DNA of 55,461 nucleotides from a virus (IMGVR_UViG_3300025011_000017), one strand, 5' to 3'; positions 3,158 through 52,516 are shown, numbered from the stretch's first letter. Notes: a model not told the origin generated them from the letters alone. Translations and numbers: made by a program.

Positions 3158-3943
3158 TTAGTCTCCTTTATTTATATTTTTTATATTTGTAACTACGTTA
3201 ACATTTACATCTAAAAAATACACATTATTTTCTTGTTCTAAATATAAAATCATATCATATTCATATGGTTTTATTATTTCATACTTATCATTGAGAAATG
3301 TAAATCTATTTTCAGTATCAACTGGACACCAACAAAATTTATAATCTTTACTTTCATCAATATAAGGTAATTCTTTATCACTTTCTTCAAAACAACTTAT
3401 TGAAATATCATTACCTTTACTACAAATATAATTAATTTTTCCAAATTCAATTTTCCAATCATGTCTATATATAGTGTTTTCTAAGTAAATATTTCTATTA
3501 ATTCTTAAAGAAGGCAAAACTCTTAAGGCCGCAAATCTGTGTGTTTTAGAATTTTTATATTTTCTTAATCCTATTTTACCTTGTTTTTTTATATTATTGT
3601 TTTTAAATTTATTAAGTATTTCAATAGCACTATCATCACTACATTTTACACCATCAAAAAATACTTCTTTATCTTTGCGATATTCAATCTGTCTTTCATT
3701 TAATATTTGATATTCTTCTTTTCTTTCAGAAAACGCATCTCCATAAAATAAATAACTTGCCATTGTATCTAGTGCAATTTTTACCTTTTGAGCATAACCA
3801 CCTTGTTTGCGTTTTTTATCTTCCCAGTATTCATTAAAATAACCTTCGTATTCTGAAATAATATTATTTACTAAAATAATTCTTTCATCATAATTTAATT
3901 TAAGATCTAATTCAATAGATTTATCTGGTAAAATTATTCTCAA
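3158..3943 (-). CDS. Hypothetical protein
   Basis: 261-aa ORF with RBS AAGGTGA. Confidence 0.7.
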   Translation of the reverse strand: MRIILPDKSIELDLKLNYDERIILVNNIISEYEGYFNEYWEDKKRKQGGYAQKVKIALDTMASYLFYGDAFSERKEEYQILNERQIEYRKDKEVFFDGVKCSDDSAIEILNKFKNNNIKKQGKIGLRKYKNSKTHRFAALRVLPSLRINRNIYLENTIYRHDWKIEFGKINYICSKGNDISISCFEESDKELPYIDESKDYKFCWCPVDTENRFTFLNDKYEIIKPYEYDMILYLEQENNVYFLDVNVNVVTNIKNINKGD

Positions 3944-4021
3944 TTTTTTATCACCTTATCTTTTACATATGTTAACATACATTTGAAATGATTCTCACTA
4001 ACCTTTATCCGTGGAGCCATG

Positions 4022-4069
4022 CTATTTGTCGCATTTGTGACAATAATCTTTAAACCCATCTCTATTTCT
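4022..4069 (-). repeat. Diverged copy of the last 48 nt of gene 5458-5925
   Basis: 40/48 nt identical to 5458-5505; reads RNRDGFKDYCHKCDK* versus RNKDGFKNYCHKCDK*. Confidence 0.9.
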
Positions 4070-4215
4070 ACTCCTTTTAATTTAGATAATTAATTATCTA
4101 ATAAGATTTGTTCTTGATTCATCGTATCTATTTTCATAATATTGCTATTATTACTAATATTTAATGTAATACTCTGCAAGCGTAAATTCGGATAAAGTCT
4201 ACCCTACATATTTTA
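4050..4215 (-). ncRNA. Putative TnpB omegaRNA (scaffold plus guide)
   Basis: Directly 3' of tnpB; CCGAATTTACGCTTGCAGAG...CGATGAATCAAGAA resembles Firmicute tnpB right ends; boundaries approximate. Confidence 0.65.
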
Positions 4216-4216
4216 A

Positions 4217-5398
4217 TCATACTACAATATATTCTTTAGTGTTCTTTATATTTATGCTTGCATTTTTATCTCTATCTATTATTATTCCACACTCTTTACA
4301 AATATATTTTCTATCTGATATTTTTAAATTTTTATTTATATTACCACATTTAGAACATAGTTTACTTGAAGGGAACCACCTATTTACAATTCTTAATTCT
4401 ATATTGTTCCATAAGCACTTATAAGTTAATTGTCTTCTAAATTCATAAAAATACTGTTCTGATATTGCCTTAGATAAATGACTATTCTTAATCATTCCAG
4501 AAATATCTAAATCTTCAATGGCTATATACTCTGGTTTGGATTTTACTAGAGCATTAGTAATATTATGAATATAATTTATGCGAATATCAGTTAATATTTG
4601 ATAAATAATTCTTATTTTAGACTCTATTTTTATAATATTTTGTGTTTTAATAAATTTTTTACCATTTTTATTCATCTCATATTTCCTAGAAACTTGTCTT
4701 TGTAATCTTTTTAACTTTTTCTTTAATTTTCTTACTTTATTAGATTTATTAATGTTTTTAAAAGGATTATCAATATTACTAACAATTGCTAAATCTTTAA
4801 CCCCTAAATCCACACCAATTCCTTCTATATTAATATCTGAATAGTTATTAGAATCTGCAATTTCGCATAATACTGAAACATAATATCTTCCTGCTTTCAT
4901 TGATACAGTTCCGCTAACAACTTTTGCATTGATTGGTATATAACCTTTTTCCTTTAATTCTATAAAACCTAAAGTTGGAATTTTAATTCTATGTCTTTCA
5001 ATAGTCCAATCTGATTTATGATTTTTAGGGAAATAAATTTTAACATCTTGATTATTTTTCTTTTTAAACTTAGGAAATTTAGACCGACCTTTAAAAAAAT
5101 TCTTATATGCAATTTCTGCGTTAATAATAGCCTTCTTCCTAGCTTTAGAACCACACTCATTAATCCACTTAAATTCTTCAAGAACTTTAATTTCATTATT
5201 TATATACTTATCAAAATCATTAGCATTTATAAATGACAATTTTTTATCAATTTCACCATTCTTAAATTTTTCATAAAGTTCTTTATTTTTTGCCAAATAT
5301 GAATTATATAAGAAGCGACATATACCTATAGATTGATTAATTTTAATAATATGTTTTTTATTCAATCTAAGTTCAGTTTTGAATCCTTTAAATATTAT
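4217..5398 (-). CDS. tnpB: TnpB RNA-guided endonuclease (IS605/IS607-type), no transposase nearby
   Basis: KGFKTEL N-terminus, GVDLG, IEDL, CSKC/CKEC zinc finger, DRDKNASIN; frame extends to ATA at 5398 behind AAGGAG. Confidence 0.93.
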   Translation of the reverse strand: MIFKGFKTELRLNKKHIIKINQSIGICRFLYNSYLAKNKELYEKFKNGEIDKKLSFINANDFDKYINNEIKVLEEFKWINECGSKARKKAIINAEIAYKNFFKGRSKFPKFKKKNNQDVKIYFPKNHKSDWTIERHRIKIPTLGFIELKEKGYIPINAKVVSGTVSMKAGRYYVSVLCEIADSNNYSDINIEGIGVDLGVKDLAIVSNIDNPFKNINKSNKVRKLKKKLKRLQRQVSRKYEMNKNGKKFIKTQNIIKIESKIRIIYQILTDIRINYIHNITNALVKSKPEYIAIEDLDISGMIKNSHLSKAISEQYFYEFRRQLTYKCLWNNIELRIVNRWFPSSKLCSKCGNINKNLKISDRKYICKECGIIIDRDKNASINIKNTKEYIVV

Positions 5399-5457
5399 GT
5401 CGATCTCCTTTTTTTGTGTTTGTGTTTGTGTTTAAAACATTTTTAATATTAGTAATT

Positions 5458-5925
5458 TTATTTATCACATTTATGACAATAGTTTTTAAATCCATCTTTA
5501 TTTCTGCCATCCATTCCAAATTGACTTTCTTGTTTAAAGGTTTTGCATCTTGTGCATTGTTTCCAATTTTCATTTGTTGGTAATTTGTCCCAATAGATAT
5601 ATTCGTATAACCAATTTTGTTTTGATTGATTTATTATTTTTGCAACACATGTCTTTAATATTTTAAAGATTGCTACATCTGTAACTCCAATGGAGTCTGC
5701 TATATCTAATTCCGTATAACCTAATTGATATAATTCTAATATCTTCTTAGTTCTTTCATTAAATCCGCATCCACTTATTAATAAGTCTAGATCAGCATAT
5801 ACACATACTGCTCCTATATCAAATTCCGTTTTAAATTGATATCTATATTTTAATAATCCTTTAATAGCTTTTTCATCACATAAATTAACTATATCCCATT
5901 CTACTTCTTTATTATCATTTGACAA
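5458..5925 (-). CDS. Sigma-region-4-like HTH protein with C-terminal zinc finger
   Basis: GYTELDIADSIGVT HTH; CTRC...CHKC. Confidence 0.65.
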   Translation of the reverse strand: MSNDNKEVEWDIVNLCDEKAIKGLLKYRYQFKTEFDIGAVCVYADLDLLISGCGFNERTKKILELYQLGYTELDIADSIGVTDVAIFKILKTCVAKIINQSKQNWLYEYIYWDKLPTNENWKQCTRCKTFKQESQFGMDGRNKDGFKNYCHKCDK

Positions 5926-47537: not shown

Positions 47538-48182
47538 ATGAAATATGTTAAATATCCAAGAACTTTACATTTACCATGGTCTTTAGGTGTAACTAATGAT
47601 GATAAAGTTCTGAAAGATATATCACATTTTATTGGAAAAAGAGTGATTGTTACTGAGAAAATGGATGGAGAGAATTCAACTCTCTATCCAGATTATCTTC
47701 ATGCTAGATCAATTGATAGTAAGGATCATCCTTCTAGACATTGGTTAAAACAGTTGCATAGCTATGTAAAAGATGAAATACCTGAAGGATGGAGAGTATG
47801 TGGGGAGAATGTATTTGCTGAACATTCTATAAAATATGACTCTTTGTCTGCACATTTTATAGTATTTTCTATTTGGGACAATATGAATATCTGTTTATCT
47901 TGGGACGAAACTATTAAATGGATAAAATATCTAGGGTTGAATATTGTCCCAATTCTTTATGATGGAATATGGGATGAAAAGAAAATTAAAGAATGTTTTT
48001 TAGGTAAGTCAAAATTTGGGCAGGAACAAGAAGGATATGTAGTTAGACTTGCAGATTCATTTCATTATGATGGTTTTAGTAAAAGAGTTGCTAAATTTGT
48101 TAGAAAAAATCATGTACAGACAGATGATCATTGGATGCAAAAAGAATTAGTTGTAAATAAATTAATTAAAGGAGTGAATTAA
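47538..48182 (+). CDS. RNA ligase family protein
   Basis: KYPRT, TEKMDGEN, GEN, EGYVVR, AKFVR. Confidence 0.9.
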   Translation: MKYVKYPRTLHLPWSLGVTNDDKVLKDISHFIGKRVIVTEKMDGENSTLYPDYLHARSIDSKDHPSRHWLKQLHSYVKDEIPEGWRVCGENVFAEHSIKYDSLSAHFIVFSIWDNMNICLSWDETIKWIKYLGLNIVPILYDGIWDEKKIKECFLGKSKFGQEQEGYVVRLADSFHYDGFSKRVAKFVRKNHVQTDDHWMQKELVVNKLIKGVN

Positions 48183-48432: not shown

Positions 48433-48639
48433 ATGTCGTTTATTAATATAAATAAAGTCACTTTAAATCATGAGAATGACGATGTTAGAAATCGCATGGG
48501 CGATGTAATGCTTTTATGTGCTTCACTTGTTTATGATGATCTGGTAAGAATAAAATACAAAGAAGCATTAAATGGTTTAAGCATGTTGAAGTCTTCTATT
48601 AATTCTCTAGAATATGTTTTAATGAAAGAATGTGATTGA
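48433..48639 (+). CDS. Hypothetical protein
   Basis: RBS GAGGTG. Confidence 0.55.
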   Translation: MSFININKVTLNHENDDVRNRMGDVMLLCASLVYDDLVRIKYKEALNGLSMLKSSINSLEYVLMKECD

Positions 48640-48974
48640 TAATGAGCAAAGAAGGATTACATTATCCTTTATATGTCGAAAGACCTAGTAAACAAATTGA
48701 TATAACCAAAGATCAATTTTACAAGCTTAGTTATATGGGATTAGCGTGTTTATGGTGTAGTTATGGTTTGGCTTTTCATTATCTTGAAAATGGAGATATT
48801 AAATTGTTTACTCATAATATTAGTTTGGTAGATAAATGTATGAATAATCATAGATTTAAAGGTATAATTTGGTACGAAAATGCGTCTACGGAGATGTATA
48901 TTTGCTATATACTTAAAGAATCAAAATTATTTAATACAATTATTAAATATTTTAGTGATTATTTAATGAAGTAG
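48636..48974 (+). CDS. Hypothetical protein
   Basis: Coupled ORF. Confidence 0.55.
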   Translation: MIMSKEGLHYPLYVERPSKQIDITKDQFYKLSYMGLACLWCSYGLAFHYLENGDIKLFTHNISLVDKCMNNHRFKGIIWYENASTEMYICYILKESKLFNTIIKYFSDYLMK

Positions 48975-49007
48975 AATTTTAATTCTATATTAATGGAGGA
49001 AGATAAT

Positions 49008-49862
49008 ATGAAATTAAAATGCAATTGTTGTGATGGTATTTATAATTCTCTTGATATTCATTTTACAAGTTCTTGTGACAATAGTTGTTCTCATTGTGTA
49101 GATAAATGTTTCAATGGTTTAAATATTTCTAAACCAGATGTTAAAGCAATCGTTAATACAATTATAAATAATCGAGAGGGTATAGATGATGTATTATTTC
49201 TTGGAGGAGAACCATGTTTATATCTTGATGAATTATTAGATTGTGTTTCACAAATTAAACAAAAAACTTCATTAAAAGTATTTGTTACTACTTCTGTTCC
49301 TAAAGTATGTAAAACAAATTATGATAAGTTTTTAAGATTATTAGATTTGCTTGATGGAATAAATTTATCAGTTCAACATTATAAAGAAAATGTGGCTGAT
49401 AAAATAAGAAATACAATTTCAACATATGATCGACAAGCTTTTTATAATTCTCTTCCTCAAAAGGATAAAATACGAATAAATTTAAATATTGTTAAGCCAT
49501 ATTTATATACTAAAGAAGATATTAGTGAATGTTTGAGACATTATGATTCAATGGGATTTAATTCTATTAAATTATCTGAAATACAACATGGTAAGGATGT
49601 ATTTGTTTCATTTGAAAATGTGTTTGGAATCTCTTTAAAATCACCATATTCGGATGGATGTCAAACATATTTAAATATGAATGAAATATTAGAAGGATTC
49701 AAAACTCCAGTTTTGTTAAAAAGATCATGCTTTATGTGCGAAGATACTTTAAAAGCCACTTTTAACGATGGTATTAAAGTAATTAGAAATTTATTTAAAC
49801 CAGTCGAAAATAAATATGGTGTAATTTATGAAAATGGGTTATTAACGAAAGGATGGATATAA
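49008..49862 (+). CDS. Radical SAM protein
   Basis: CDNSCSHC, GGEP; extra Cys CNCC and CFMC; RBS GGAGG. Confidence 0.92.
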   Translation: MKLKCNCCDGIYNSLDIHFTSSCDNSCSHCVDKCFNGLNISKPDVKAIVNTIINNREGIDDVLFLGGEPCLYLDELLDCVSQIKQKTSLKVFVTTSVPKVCKTNYDKFLRLLDLLDGINLSVQHYKENVADKIRNTISTYDRQAFYNSLPQKDKIRINLNIVKPYLYTKEDISECLRHYDSMGFNSIKLSEIQHGKDVFVSFENVFGISLKSPYSDGCQTYLNMNEILEGFKTPVLLKRSCFMCEDTLKATFNDGIKVIRNLFKPVENKYGVIYENGLLTKGWI

Positions 49863-49864
49863 TT

Positions 49865-49960
49865 ATGTACACAAAATTAGTAAAAATGATAGTTAAATTA
49901 CAAAGGCAGATGGCAGGACATTGTGGAGGAAGTTCTAGTGGTAGCGGTCATTGTTCGTAA
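49865..49960 (+). CDS. 31-aa putative RiPP precursor (not in ORF track)
   Basis: MYTKLVKMIVKLQRQMAGHCGGSSSGSGHCS; RBS AAAGGA; 2 nt after the radical SAM stop. Confidence 0.7.
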   Translation: MYTKLVKMIVKLQRQMAGHCGGSSSGSGHCS

Positions 49961-50365: not shown

Positions 50366-50644
50366 ATGATAAAAATGGAAAAAGATGTAGTAGTAGGTCA
50401 ATTAGCTCAAAATATTAAAGGTAAAGAATGGTTATATTGTGTTGTTACTAAAGTTTTTGATGATAGATGCGAAGTAATAAATGAACGCGGAAAAATTACA
50501 ATGGTAATGTTAAATAATACTGACGAGGAATTTACGGAAAAACATATTTCTGATGGCGAGGTACACTTTCTTTATCATAATAATAAACCTGTAATGGCAA
50601 AGAAAAGTATATTTGGAAGATATAAATTTGAGGTAAATAAGTAA
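50366..50644 (+). CDS. Hypothetical protein
   Basis: RBS AAAGGA. Confidence 0.6.
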   Translation: MIKMEKDVVVGQLAQNIKGKEWLYCVVTKVFDDRCEVINERGKITMVMLNNTDEEFTEKHISDGEVHFLYHNNKPVMAKKSIFGRYKFEVNK

Positions 50645-51210: not shown

Positions 51211-51654
51211 ATGTTAATTGAAAAAATTAAATCTGATGCTCTTGAAGCACGTAAAGCTCGTAAAACTGAAGTCGCAACATTGTTAACAACTCTATATTCT
51301 GAAGCTTCTATGATAGGAAAGAATAGTGGAAATAGACAATCTATCGACAAAGAAGTATTACAAGTCATTGAGAAATTTGTTAAGAATGCTAATGAAGTTA
51401 AAGATATTCTCTTAGAATCTGGGAAAGATGCGAGTAATGTAATTTTTGAAATTGAAACATTAAGAGCATATCTTCCCAAACAAATGTCGCGTGACGAACT
51501 TCAAGAAGTAATAAAGTATATCATAAAAAGACTTGAAGAAAGTGGTAAACAAATAGGTAATGTTATGAGTAACCTTAAAGCTAATTACGGTGGATCATAT
51601 GATGGGAAAATGGCAAGTGAGATTGTAAAAAAGGAGTTAGCTAATGATATATGA
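51211..51654 (+). CDS. GatB/YqeY domain protein
   Basis: EIETLRAYLPKQMS, IGNVMSNLK...YDGK. Confidence 0.88.
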   Translation: MLIEKIKSDALEARKARKTEVATLLTTLYSEASMIGKNSGNRQSIDKEVLQVIEKFVKNANEVKDILLESGKDASNVIFEIETLRAYLPKQMSRDELQEVIKYIIKRLEESGKQIGNVMSNLKANYGGSYDGKMASEIVKKELANDI

Positions 51655-52015: not shown

Positions 52016-52516
52016 ATGAAAAGAAAAATTGTAATATATGCAGGTAGTTTTGATCCTATAACTAATGGTCATCTAAATATTATTGAACAAGCTTATGATA
52101 TGTTTGATGAAATAATTGTTGGAGTATTAATTAATTCACAAAAGAAATCTTTATTTACTATCGAAGAAAGAATAAATATGATTAATGAAGTTGTAAATCC
52201 ACTTCCTGATATTAAAGTGAAATCATTTGCAGGTGCTTTAATTGATTTTGCAAAGGAAGAAAATGCGTGTGCTATAATAAGAGGTTTAAGAAGTATATCA
52301 GACTTTGAAAGTGAATTACAACTAGCTTTAGTTAATAAATCGATCAGTAATGGAATATTAAATACTATATTTTTAATTCCAGATATTAATTATCAATTTA
52401 TTAGTTCTTCAATGGTAAAAGAGATTGCTAGATTAGGTAAAAAGATTTATGATTTTGTTCCTACAAGTGTAGCTGTAGAACTATACAAAAAAATAGGAGC
52501 GATTAAAAATGATTAA
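52016..52516 (+). CDS. coaD: Phosphopantetheine adenylyltransferase
   Basis: YAGSFDPITNGH, RGLRSISDFESE, ISSSMVKE. Confidence 0.93.
   Translation: MKRKIVIYAGSFDPITNGHLNIIEQAYDMFDEIIVGVLINSQKKSLFTIEERINMINEVVNPLPDIKVKSFAGALIDFAKEENACAIIRGLRSISDFESELQLALVNKSISNGILNTIFLIPDINYQFISSSMVKEIARLGKKIYDFVPTSVAVELYKKIGAIKND

Follow-up and report, generated by a model that had tools for sequence, protein, structure and literature searches.

Does a radical S-adenosylmethionine (SAM) enzyme encoded by a virus act on the very small, cysteine-bearing peptide that is encoded immediately behind it? The question is raised by the virus sequence IMGVR_UViG_3300025011_000017, a 55,461-nt stretch of DNA (the window; all coordinates are those of its whole length) that is AT-rich, with about 28% GC, and whose DNA in the region of interest is found in groundwater metagenomes from one study. 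Here a gene for a 284-residue radical SAM enzyme is followed on the same (+) strand by a 31-residue open reading frame (ORF) with two Gly-His-Cys motifs. A same-strand ORF with a cysteine-bearing tail adjoins the enzyme gene in 70 of the 72 loci that were read with their flanks, at enzyme identities of 28-89% and including the Lak megaphages. From these sequence comparisons we consider it fairly probable that the two genes are a self-contained, virus-borne enzyme-substrate pair in which the cysteines of the tail become modified.

The enzyme gene and the short reading frame behind it

The pair in the window consists of the following elements.

48996..49000, + strand: GGAGG ribosome-binding site of the enzyme gene, 7 nt before the ATG at 49008, read directly
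49008..49862, + strand: radical SAM enzyme, 284 amino acids, assigned from Pfam PF04055 and PF13353, the lengths of its homologues and an AlphaFold2 fold
49848..49856, + strand: AAGGATGG, a Shine-Dalgarno-like stretch for the peptide, inside the K-G-W codons of the enzyme
49865..49915, + strand: leader-like half of the peptide, MYTKLVKMIVKLQRQMA, with the pattern of a basic amphipathic helix; its start, M-[YFW]-T-[KR], is conserved across the HC clade described below
49916..49960, + strand: core of the peptide, GHCGGSSSGSGHCS, plus stop, with Gly-His-Cys at 49916..49924 and 49946..49954

The ATG at 49008 is probably the real start of the enzyme gene, because of the GGAGG upstream of it and because nearly all homologues and database copies are 284 residues long; an alternative start at 48993 would give 289 residues (48993..49862) and was judged less likely. 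The product scores 38.7 bits against the Pfam Radical_SAM model (PF04055), for which the cut-off is 29.5, and Fer4_12 (PF13353) is also above threshold.

The peptide ORF, MYTKLVKMIVKLQRQMAGHCGGSSSGSGHCS (49865..49960), opens 2 nt after the TAA of the enzyme gene, and the Shine-Dalgarno-like letters AAAGGATGG sit within the enzyme's final codons. Since the candidate ribosome-binding site of the peptide lies within enzyme codons, translation of the two genes would be coupled. In related loci the start codon of the peptide is likewise within a few nt of the enzyme stop or overlaps it. A sequence-only reading of this DNA had pointed to a peptide with an amphipathic half and a two-GHC core directly behind the radical SAM gene and with its own ribosome-binding site, and all of this can be read in the sequence. 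That reading had also called the peptide unannotated: it is indeed nameless, but the exact 31-residue product has already been called in JGI/ENA assemblies, on contigs of up to 183 kb, and members of a near-identical peptide cluster lie on contigs of up to 277 kb.

Compared with locus L004 (the nearest relative, with 89% enzyme identity), the peptide core carries six synonymous changes and one replacement; judged from such changes, the core is under purifying selection. The GHC motifs are invariant in related loci, and the spacer between them ranges from 2 to 12 residues and is variable in sequence. As far as sequences tell, the peptide evolves as a precursor would, the start of the leader and the motifs being conserved and the spacer being free to vary.

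Cysteine tails beside the enzyme and fused to it

Two scans of IMG/VR were made, one with the window protein as query (12 loci) and one with an alignment of 53 homologues (72 loci). The 72 loci read with their flanks are the window, 67 IMG/VR loci, one uncultured Clostridium metagenome-assembled genome and three Lak records. The Clostridium genome was the one locus found when genome contigs were scanned with the single enzyme protein, and a GHC peptide is present there too. Among GenBank phages, tblastn with the enzyme matched only Lak megaphages, at about 36% identity, and megablast with the region gave zero matches.

A cysteine tail was defined as a small-residue-rich ORF end with at least two cysteines. 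Applied automatically this definition flagged 56 loci, and the other 14 were judged by eye, their tails being poorer in Gly and Ser (for example GHCVHGHCSE and GCHEIETGCH). In the partner ORFs the last cysteine is 0-3 residues from the C-terminus. The partner is downstream of the enzyme in 68 loci and upstream in L078 and L080, where it ends just before the enzyme start; only L063 and L073 lack one. Such tails are found in 3 of the 615 ORFs of the window, the studied peptide counted, and in 93 of the 5165 ORFs of the fetched loci, the true partners counted, which gives a background of about 0.5%. Set against this background, 70 of 72 loci argue for a pairing beyond chance. Whether homologues of the enzyme lack the peptide, the check proposed with the sequence-only reading, is thus answered by a cysteine-motif partner that is kept across the whole range of enzyme identity, and the layout typical of a ribosomally synthesized peptide that is modified post-translationally (RiPP), in which a precursor with a recognition part and a core is encoded beside its modifying enzyme, recurs in the same loci. 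In one locus (L032) the enzyme has two peptide genes that differ from each other; they stand in tandem, and a separate GGAGG precedes each of them.

The small ORF is short and of low complexity, and neither it nor any of eight longer partners belongs to a family in Pfam, NCBIfam, PHROGs or PADLOC, as might be expected if it were a chance reading frame and the enzyme worked alone. The probability of this explanation is close to nil, given how regularly the ORF is kept beside the enzyme relative to the background, the synonymous bias of the changes in its core, its conserved start and ribosome-binding site, and the existence of fused forms (see below).

The enzyme family is large, with 943 clusters at 90% identity, nearly all of 284-286 residues, and 187 clusters with E below 1e-10 in a 50% identity library. 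Its neighbours in the ESM Atlas are 100% viral; one member, on a 157-kb contig, bears the name 'radical SAM protein [Clostridium perfringens]'. A quick maximum-likelihood tree, with the Shimodaira-Hasegawa-like approximate likelihood ratio test as its only support measure and with long branches flagged, contains three enzyme clades (HC, GGC and mixed). In the HC clade (29 rows) the peptides have 27-62 residues, the M-[YFW]-T-[KR] start and two to four [G/S]-H-C motifs; a thirtieth HC row, L047, branches apart. The GGC clade (15 rows, including Lak) has partners of 51-166 residues, most of at least 89, with a helical N-terminal part and a tail of 2 to about 9 G-G-C or G-R-C units in which Cys comes last. 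The mixed clade has HC or G-C-H motifs. Across the family the number of motifs runs from 2 to about 9, and the type of tail (HC, CH or GGC) is clustered on the enzyme tree, with none of 500 shuffles giving as low a value.

These clades bear on the chemistry. A His-carbon crosslink, which the sequence-only reading had offered as one of the reactions of such maturases, has to be given up as the shared chemistry because His is absent from the motif of the GGC/Lak clade (Gly-Gly-Cys or Gly-Arg-Cys); other clades have Gly-Cys-His. Since Cys is the only residue that is universal in the tails, the chemistry must centre on it.

In 16 of the 150 distant representatives listed, the tail is fused to the C-terminus of the enzyme (with G-C-H or G-H-C motifs and linkers of 5 to about 60 residues), and such natural fusions imply that tail and enzyme must meet physically. 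The idea of a RiPP with a small peptide stands as far as it describes a self-contained pair; as to size it does not, with partners of up to 166 residues in the GGC clade and the fused forms in the distant homologues. Because these large and fused partners exist, modification of a protein tail, or a functional arm, is possible beside a classical RiPP. The fusions would fit a self-modifying enzyme by analogy with the borosins (OphMA-type), in which the target tail may be a separate peptide or a C-terminal extension of the very enzyme that modifies it. The likeness is in the split and fused forms of the tail; the borosin enzymes are SAM-dependent N-methyltransferases with no known sequence relationship to the phage radical SAM enzyme.

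Two observations on gene structure belong here. In L009/L023 (IMGVR_UViG_3300029706_000244) the enzyme gene is frameshifted at its 3' end relative to sister contigs, so that enzyme and peptide share one reading frame in an apparent fusion, which may be an assembly error or may be the route by which fusions arise. The 695-residue protein P0172 has two Radical_SAM stretches, with the domain of this family at 388-675 behind another radical SAM domain.

The fusions also give substance to the main rival explanation, that the tail is a working arm, docked or fused, which passes on electrons, sulfur or a metal ion or provides an auxiliary cluster with its fourth ligand, while the enzyme acts on something else, such as a nucleotide. 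Some of the 16 fused linkers at the enzyme C-terminus are only 5-14 residues long, translational coupling would fix the ratio of partner to enzyme at 1:1, and the features universal to the tails are just Cys, the C-terminal position and small flexible residues. C-terminal arms with cysteines are known from class I ribonucleotide reductase, from thioredoxin reductase (GCUG) and from MerA. Nevertheless, motif numbers of 2 to about 9, odd cysteine counts (3 or 5) and free spacing are hard to reconcile with an arm, as are the L032 enzyme with its two differing tandem peptide genes and the change of motif flavour from clade to clade; variable number and spacing, tandem genes and shifting flavour are traits of a substrate rather than of a catalytic element. 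Furthermore, no second conserved gene points to another pathway, and the borosins are a true RiPP class in which fused enzyme-core proteins are known. We regard the arm as rather unlikely.

The enzyme, its cysteines and its relatives

If the tail is the substrate, the enzyme should have the means to handle it, and its conserved residues are informative here. Conservation was read from 53 diverse homologues (A1) and from the same set with the fused clade added (A2).

49029..49031, + strand: C8 of the N-x-C-D motif, candidate auxiliary-cluster ligand, invariant in A1, with at least 90% conservation in A2
49074..49097, + strand: CX3CX2C (CDNSCSHC; C23, C27 and C30), ligands of the SAM-binding [4Fe-4S] cluster, invariant in the 53 homologues
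49659..49661, + strand: C218 (in G-C, before a strand of the C-terminal hairpin), candidate auxiliary-cluster ligand, invariant in A1 and A2
49728..49730, + strand: C241 (in R-S-C, after the second hairpin strand), candidate auxiliary-cluster ligand, invariant in A1, with at least 90% conservation in A2

The residues invariant in the 53 homologues are N6, C8, D9, C23/C27/C30, GGEP, P98, S121, E191, C218 and C241, so that outside the core only three cysteines are conserved, two of them C-terminal. The extra cysteines to which attention had first been drawn (CNCC, CQ and CFMC) are all present, but conservation narrows them to C8 (the last Cys of CNCC), C218 (in GCQ) and C241 (the first Cys of SCFMC). 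An AlphaFold2 model of the enzyme (predicted local distance difference test, pLDDT, of 96) has a radical SAM fold, with C218 just before and C241 just after a beta-hairpin (predicted strands at 219-222 and 235-238) that is followed by a helix; we take this layout to be that of the auxiliary-cluster domains of the Twitch/SPASM type. The structures of MoaA, SkfB, BtrN and SpeY align across the whole enzyme model. Judged from their conservation and this layout, C8, C218 and C241 probably hold a three-cysteine auxiliary cluster, and one of its irons would be left open because there are three Cys ligands only. An auxiliary cluster with an open iron site is known from MoaA, and in CteB the open site of the auxiliary cluster binds a cysteine of the substrate.

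The fold and sequence relatives are less specific. A structure search with the model returned 140 radical SAM matches in PDB at E <= 0.001, with Z up to 17.5; SuiB, GDGT-MAS, viperin, MoaA, pyruvate formate-lyase (PFL) activase, CteB, SkfB and ChlB are tied at Z 15-17.5. Peptide maturases among these neighbours are SuiB (Z 17.5), CteB (16.1), SkfB (15.4) and ChlB (15.4). In a profile search against PDB the core is nearest to viperin-like proteins (E 6e-17, positions 16-188), followed by SuiB, YydG and MoaA. All curated NCBIfam models score far under their cut-offs.

Viperin and its prokaryotic counterpart pVip deserve comment as the best sequence match to the core, with 42.7 bits for the PADLOC pVip model and a similar overall size. 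This nucleotide-acting kinship, together with that to MoaA, is a further point for the working arm introduced above. Identity with viperin was rejected, with scores of 35.7 bits against a cut-off of 180 (NF038283) and 17.2 against 450 (TIGR04278) and an alignment that stops at 188 of 287; the C-terminal 100 residues of the phage enzyme are unmatched, and viperins have neither the extra conserved cysteines nor a peptide partner. MoaA and QueE were also rejected as identities, being far under their family cut-offs. The model matched by most members (51 of 53, best E 2e-11) is HxsC (TIGR03977), by NCBIfam's description a radical SAM maturase whose system takes its name from His-Xaa-Ser repeats. 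The window protein scores 18.7 bits where 267.9 are called for, and this identity was rejected as well. The Hxs system, which is uncharacterised, does have a repeat-peptide partner; unlike the phage pair it has two radical SAM enzymes and a peptide that is not known to carry a Cys motif.

In some sources homologues bear the name 'organic radical activating enzyme' or 'PFL-activating enzyme', and PFL activase matches the model at Z 16.3 with a root-mean-square deviation of 3.2 over 205 residues. With a Gly-rich tail, the enzyme could on this ground be imagined as an activase that leaves the peptide with a stable glycyl or thiyl radical, comparable to PFL activase and its small 'spare part' protein. 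The glycyl-radical activases (NrdG and PFL activase) were rejected as identities, at 20 bits against 174 for TIGR02494, 19 against 232 for TIGR02493 and 28 against 250 for YjjW. The tails contain no RVxG-type motif, activases do not have the three extra conserved cysteines, and disordered peptides of 30 residues are not known to shield a glycyl radical. An activase is thus very improbable.

Among the systems closest to the pair are those of sactipeptides and ranthipeptides (CteB/CteA 'SCIFF', PapB/PapA, SkfB/SkfA and AlbA/SboA), where the gene of a radical SAM enzyme adjoins that of a short precursor whose N-terminal part serves for recognition and whose core bears Cys, is rich in small residues and has repeated motifs. 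The candidate auxiliary cluster with its free iron would also suit binding of a substrate cysteine of the CteB type. The phage enzyme differs from them in its 284 residues, its lack of a SPASM domain and of a RiPP recognition element (RRE), and its lack of a protease or exporter partner; the phage family is in addition almost entirely viral, includes fused forms and has no common acceptor residue. The PapB model (NF047865) scores 15.2 bits against 340 and finds weak matches in just 7 of the 53 members; PapB is able to link Cys to a C-terminal residue (PMC12373016). A second comparison is with CrpC/CrpA of Methanococcus voltae, where a radical SAM enzyme cross-links, through thioethers (ranthionine), the Cys-rich protein of a neighbouring gene (PMC13692751). 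CrpA offers a precedent for the large partners of the GGC/Lak clade, and CrpC differs from the phage enzyme in being archaeal and in having an RRE and a SPASM domain with two extra clusters (PMC13692751). No specific relationship of CrpC to the phage family was detectable. A search of the literature for the pairing of a radical SAM enzyme with a Cys tail found no description, and the pair is a mainly viral variation, not yet described, on the theme of radical SAM enzyme and cysteine peptide.

Neighbouring genes, proposed mechanism and meaning

Does the neighbourhood reveal further members of the unit? All-against-all clustering of the flanking ORFs found no gene besides the enzyme that is common to all clades (the Cys-tail partner aside), none of the window's neighbour genes recurs in the other 70 loci, and no protease or exporter belongs to the shared unit. 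The description of a two-gene unit without a transporter, made at the outset from the one sequence, therefore extends across the clades.

The genes near the pair in the window are an RNA ligase (47538-48182; Pfam 3.6e-32, phrog_24030), a YqeY-like protein (51211-51654; 2e-19, with the PHROG label 'tRNA amidotransferase') and an ORF at 52016-52516 in which the phosphopantetheine adenylyltransferase signature GSFDPITNGH was recognized by eye only. The 112-residue ORF directly upstream of the pair (48636-48974) gives a sub-threshold match to LAGLIDADG_1 (E 0.022, 16 bits against 23) and is possibly, by this sequence similarity, the remnant of a homing endonuclease. At its end lies the following element.

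48971..48988, + strand: gene-end inverted repeat GTAGAA-N6-TTCTAT, a one-mismatch copy of the window motif ATARAA-N6-TTYTAT

Between 22154 and 53506 the window has 18 exact copies of this motif, all on the + strand, where 0.6 are expected from shuffles. Many copies are at gene ends, and the pair lies between the near copy at 48971 and an exact copy at 50644. A cassette-type site had been placed at 48971: the motif is real in the window, but the site itself is an imperfect copy, and it forms part of another finding. The TAG within it serves the upstream ORF as stop codon, and the repeat marks an upstream boundary outside the enzyme/peptide pair. The hairpin that it could form is weak (7 bp, z -1.4), as are the hairpins at other gene ends around the pair; a scan for promoters and terminators round the pair gave nothing above shuffles, and no intrinsic terminator was found there.

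Other loci have neighbours of their own. In L016 (IMGVR_UViG_3300025030_000047, the window's closest relative) a second, unrelated radical SAM protein of 414 residues (Pfam 2e-23) is encoded straight after the GHC peptide, at 3502-4746; the window has a 120-residue gene of unknown function (phrog_29711) at that position. In L018, L019, L023 and L041, a sub-clade of human-gut type, a conserved protein of 685-687 residues with no Pfam match comes after the peptide, at about 3555-5620.

A group of 17 loci (from L049-L063, L073, L080 and L082), made up of most of the GGC clade and the long-branch loci L073 and L080, has PnuC (NMN_transporter, 1e-41) beside the pair, as in L049 at 740-2495 and 3798-4187. 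Fourteen of the 17 have a NadR-like gene (cytidylyltransferase plus AAA_28) upstream, and in 15 the next gene, at a distance of about 100-450 nt downstream, codes for a gp25-type baseplate wedge (Pfam GPW_gp25, 1.9e-11). We rejected a functional link to PnuC/NadR, the arrangement being confined to one group of loci and probably reflecting synteny among related phages; a paper on nicotinamide adenine dinucleotide (NAD) in jumbo phages leaves radical SAM unmentioned.

The baseplate gene raises the possibility that phage proteins, perhaps parts of the virion, have their Cys tails cross-linked or hardened, with the 31-residue peptide as a minimal structural or accessory protein. Besides this adjacency, the large partners of the GGC clade with their helical N-terminal domain are in keeping with the idea, and thioether crosslinks made by a radical SAM enzyme on a whole Cys-rich protein are on record for CrpC/CrpA (PMC13692751). 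The adjacency is found in a single set of related phages and may amount to no more than synteny; in the window and throughout the HC clade the pair sits amid small non-structural genes, with changing neighbours, and a product of 27-36 residues with a 17-residue helix would make an unlikely part of a virion. We consider a virion target quite unlikely.

The reading that we prefer, with the tail as substrate, draws on strict adjacency, coupled translation and a conserved helix of the docking type, as well as on the variable number and spacing of the motifs, the tandem precursor genes and the way in which tail type changes with enzyme clade. Several observations weigh against it. The enzyme has no Pfam match to a SPASM domain and does not contain the seven-cysteine motif that holds two auxiliary clusters; nor is there a Pfam or NCBIfam match to a PqqD-like RRE, a domain that is common in RiPP systems though they can do without it, the protein being a core plus about 90 residues. 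(The initial impression that neither an RRE nor a full SPASM domain is present thus agrees with these searches and with conservation in the 53 homologues.) Ties in the structure search among peptide maturases, viperin, MoaA and PFL activase mean that the fold picks no substrate class, and the nearest sequence relatives of solved structure are the nucleotide-acting viperins, for the core only, and MoaA. In an AlphaFold2 model of the natural fusion P0241 the fused tail is disordered, with pLDDT below 50, so the model leaves docking unsupported. There is no acceptor residue common to all clades. Finally, the fusions and the larger partners fit a permanently attached functional tail equally well as they fit a substrate.

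With the tail as substrate, the simplest way to model the process is as follows. The enzyme would carry its SAM-cleaving [4Fe-4S] cluster on C23, C27 and C30 and a second cluster with one free iron on C8, C218 and C241. The peptide, made by coupled translation right behind the enzyme, would dock on it through its basic amphipathic N-terminal helix, and the flexible, Gly/Ser-rich C-terminal tail would enter the active site, where the Gly-x-Cys units would be modified by radical chemistry. The likeliest single reaction would be abstraction of hydrogen beside a cluster-bound cysteine thiolate, to give a thioether like that of sactionine or ranthionine, or some other change centred on Cys. A thioether crosslink is our first guess, by analogy with the maturases of sactipeptides and ranthipeptides and with CrpC/CrpA. 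Because the unit has no protease or exporter, the product would act within the infected cell or be freed at lysis.

We also entertain, tentatively, a virus-specific way of modifying peptides or protein tails whose chemistry is neither that of sactionine nor that of ranthionine, in which a minimal enzyme with a single open auxiliary cluster would turn terminal Gly-x-Cys, on a separate partner or on a tail of its own, into a new Cys-derived group, for example a metal-binding or redox-active one. Phages from about 57 kb up to megaphages of 550 kb might use such a product while they infect, to take over the host or to counter its defences.

Should the tail be modified, the pair would stand for a large family of RiPP type found essentially only in viruses, Lak megaphages included, and for a new kind of phage accessory function. 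For the virus, the product might serve as a metal binder, as an inhibitor of a host target or as a hardened protein tail. A small enzyme that does without the usual peptide-recognition and SPASM domains would also be a simple model for the way in which radical SAM enzymes grip and alter cysteine peptides.

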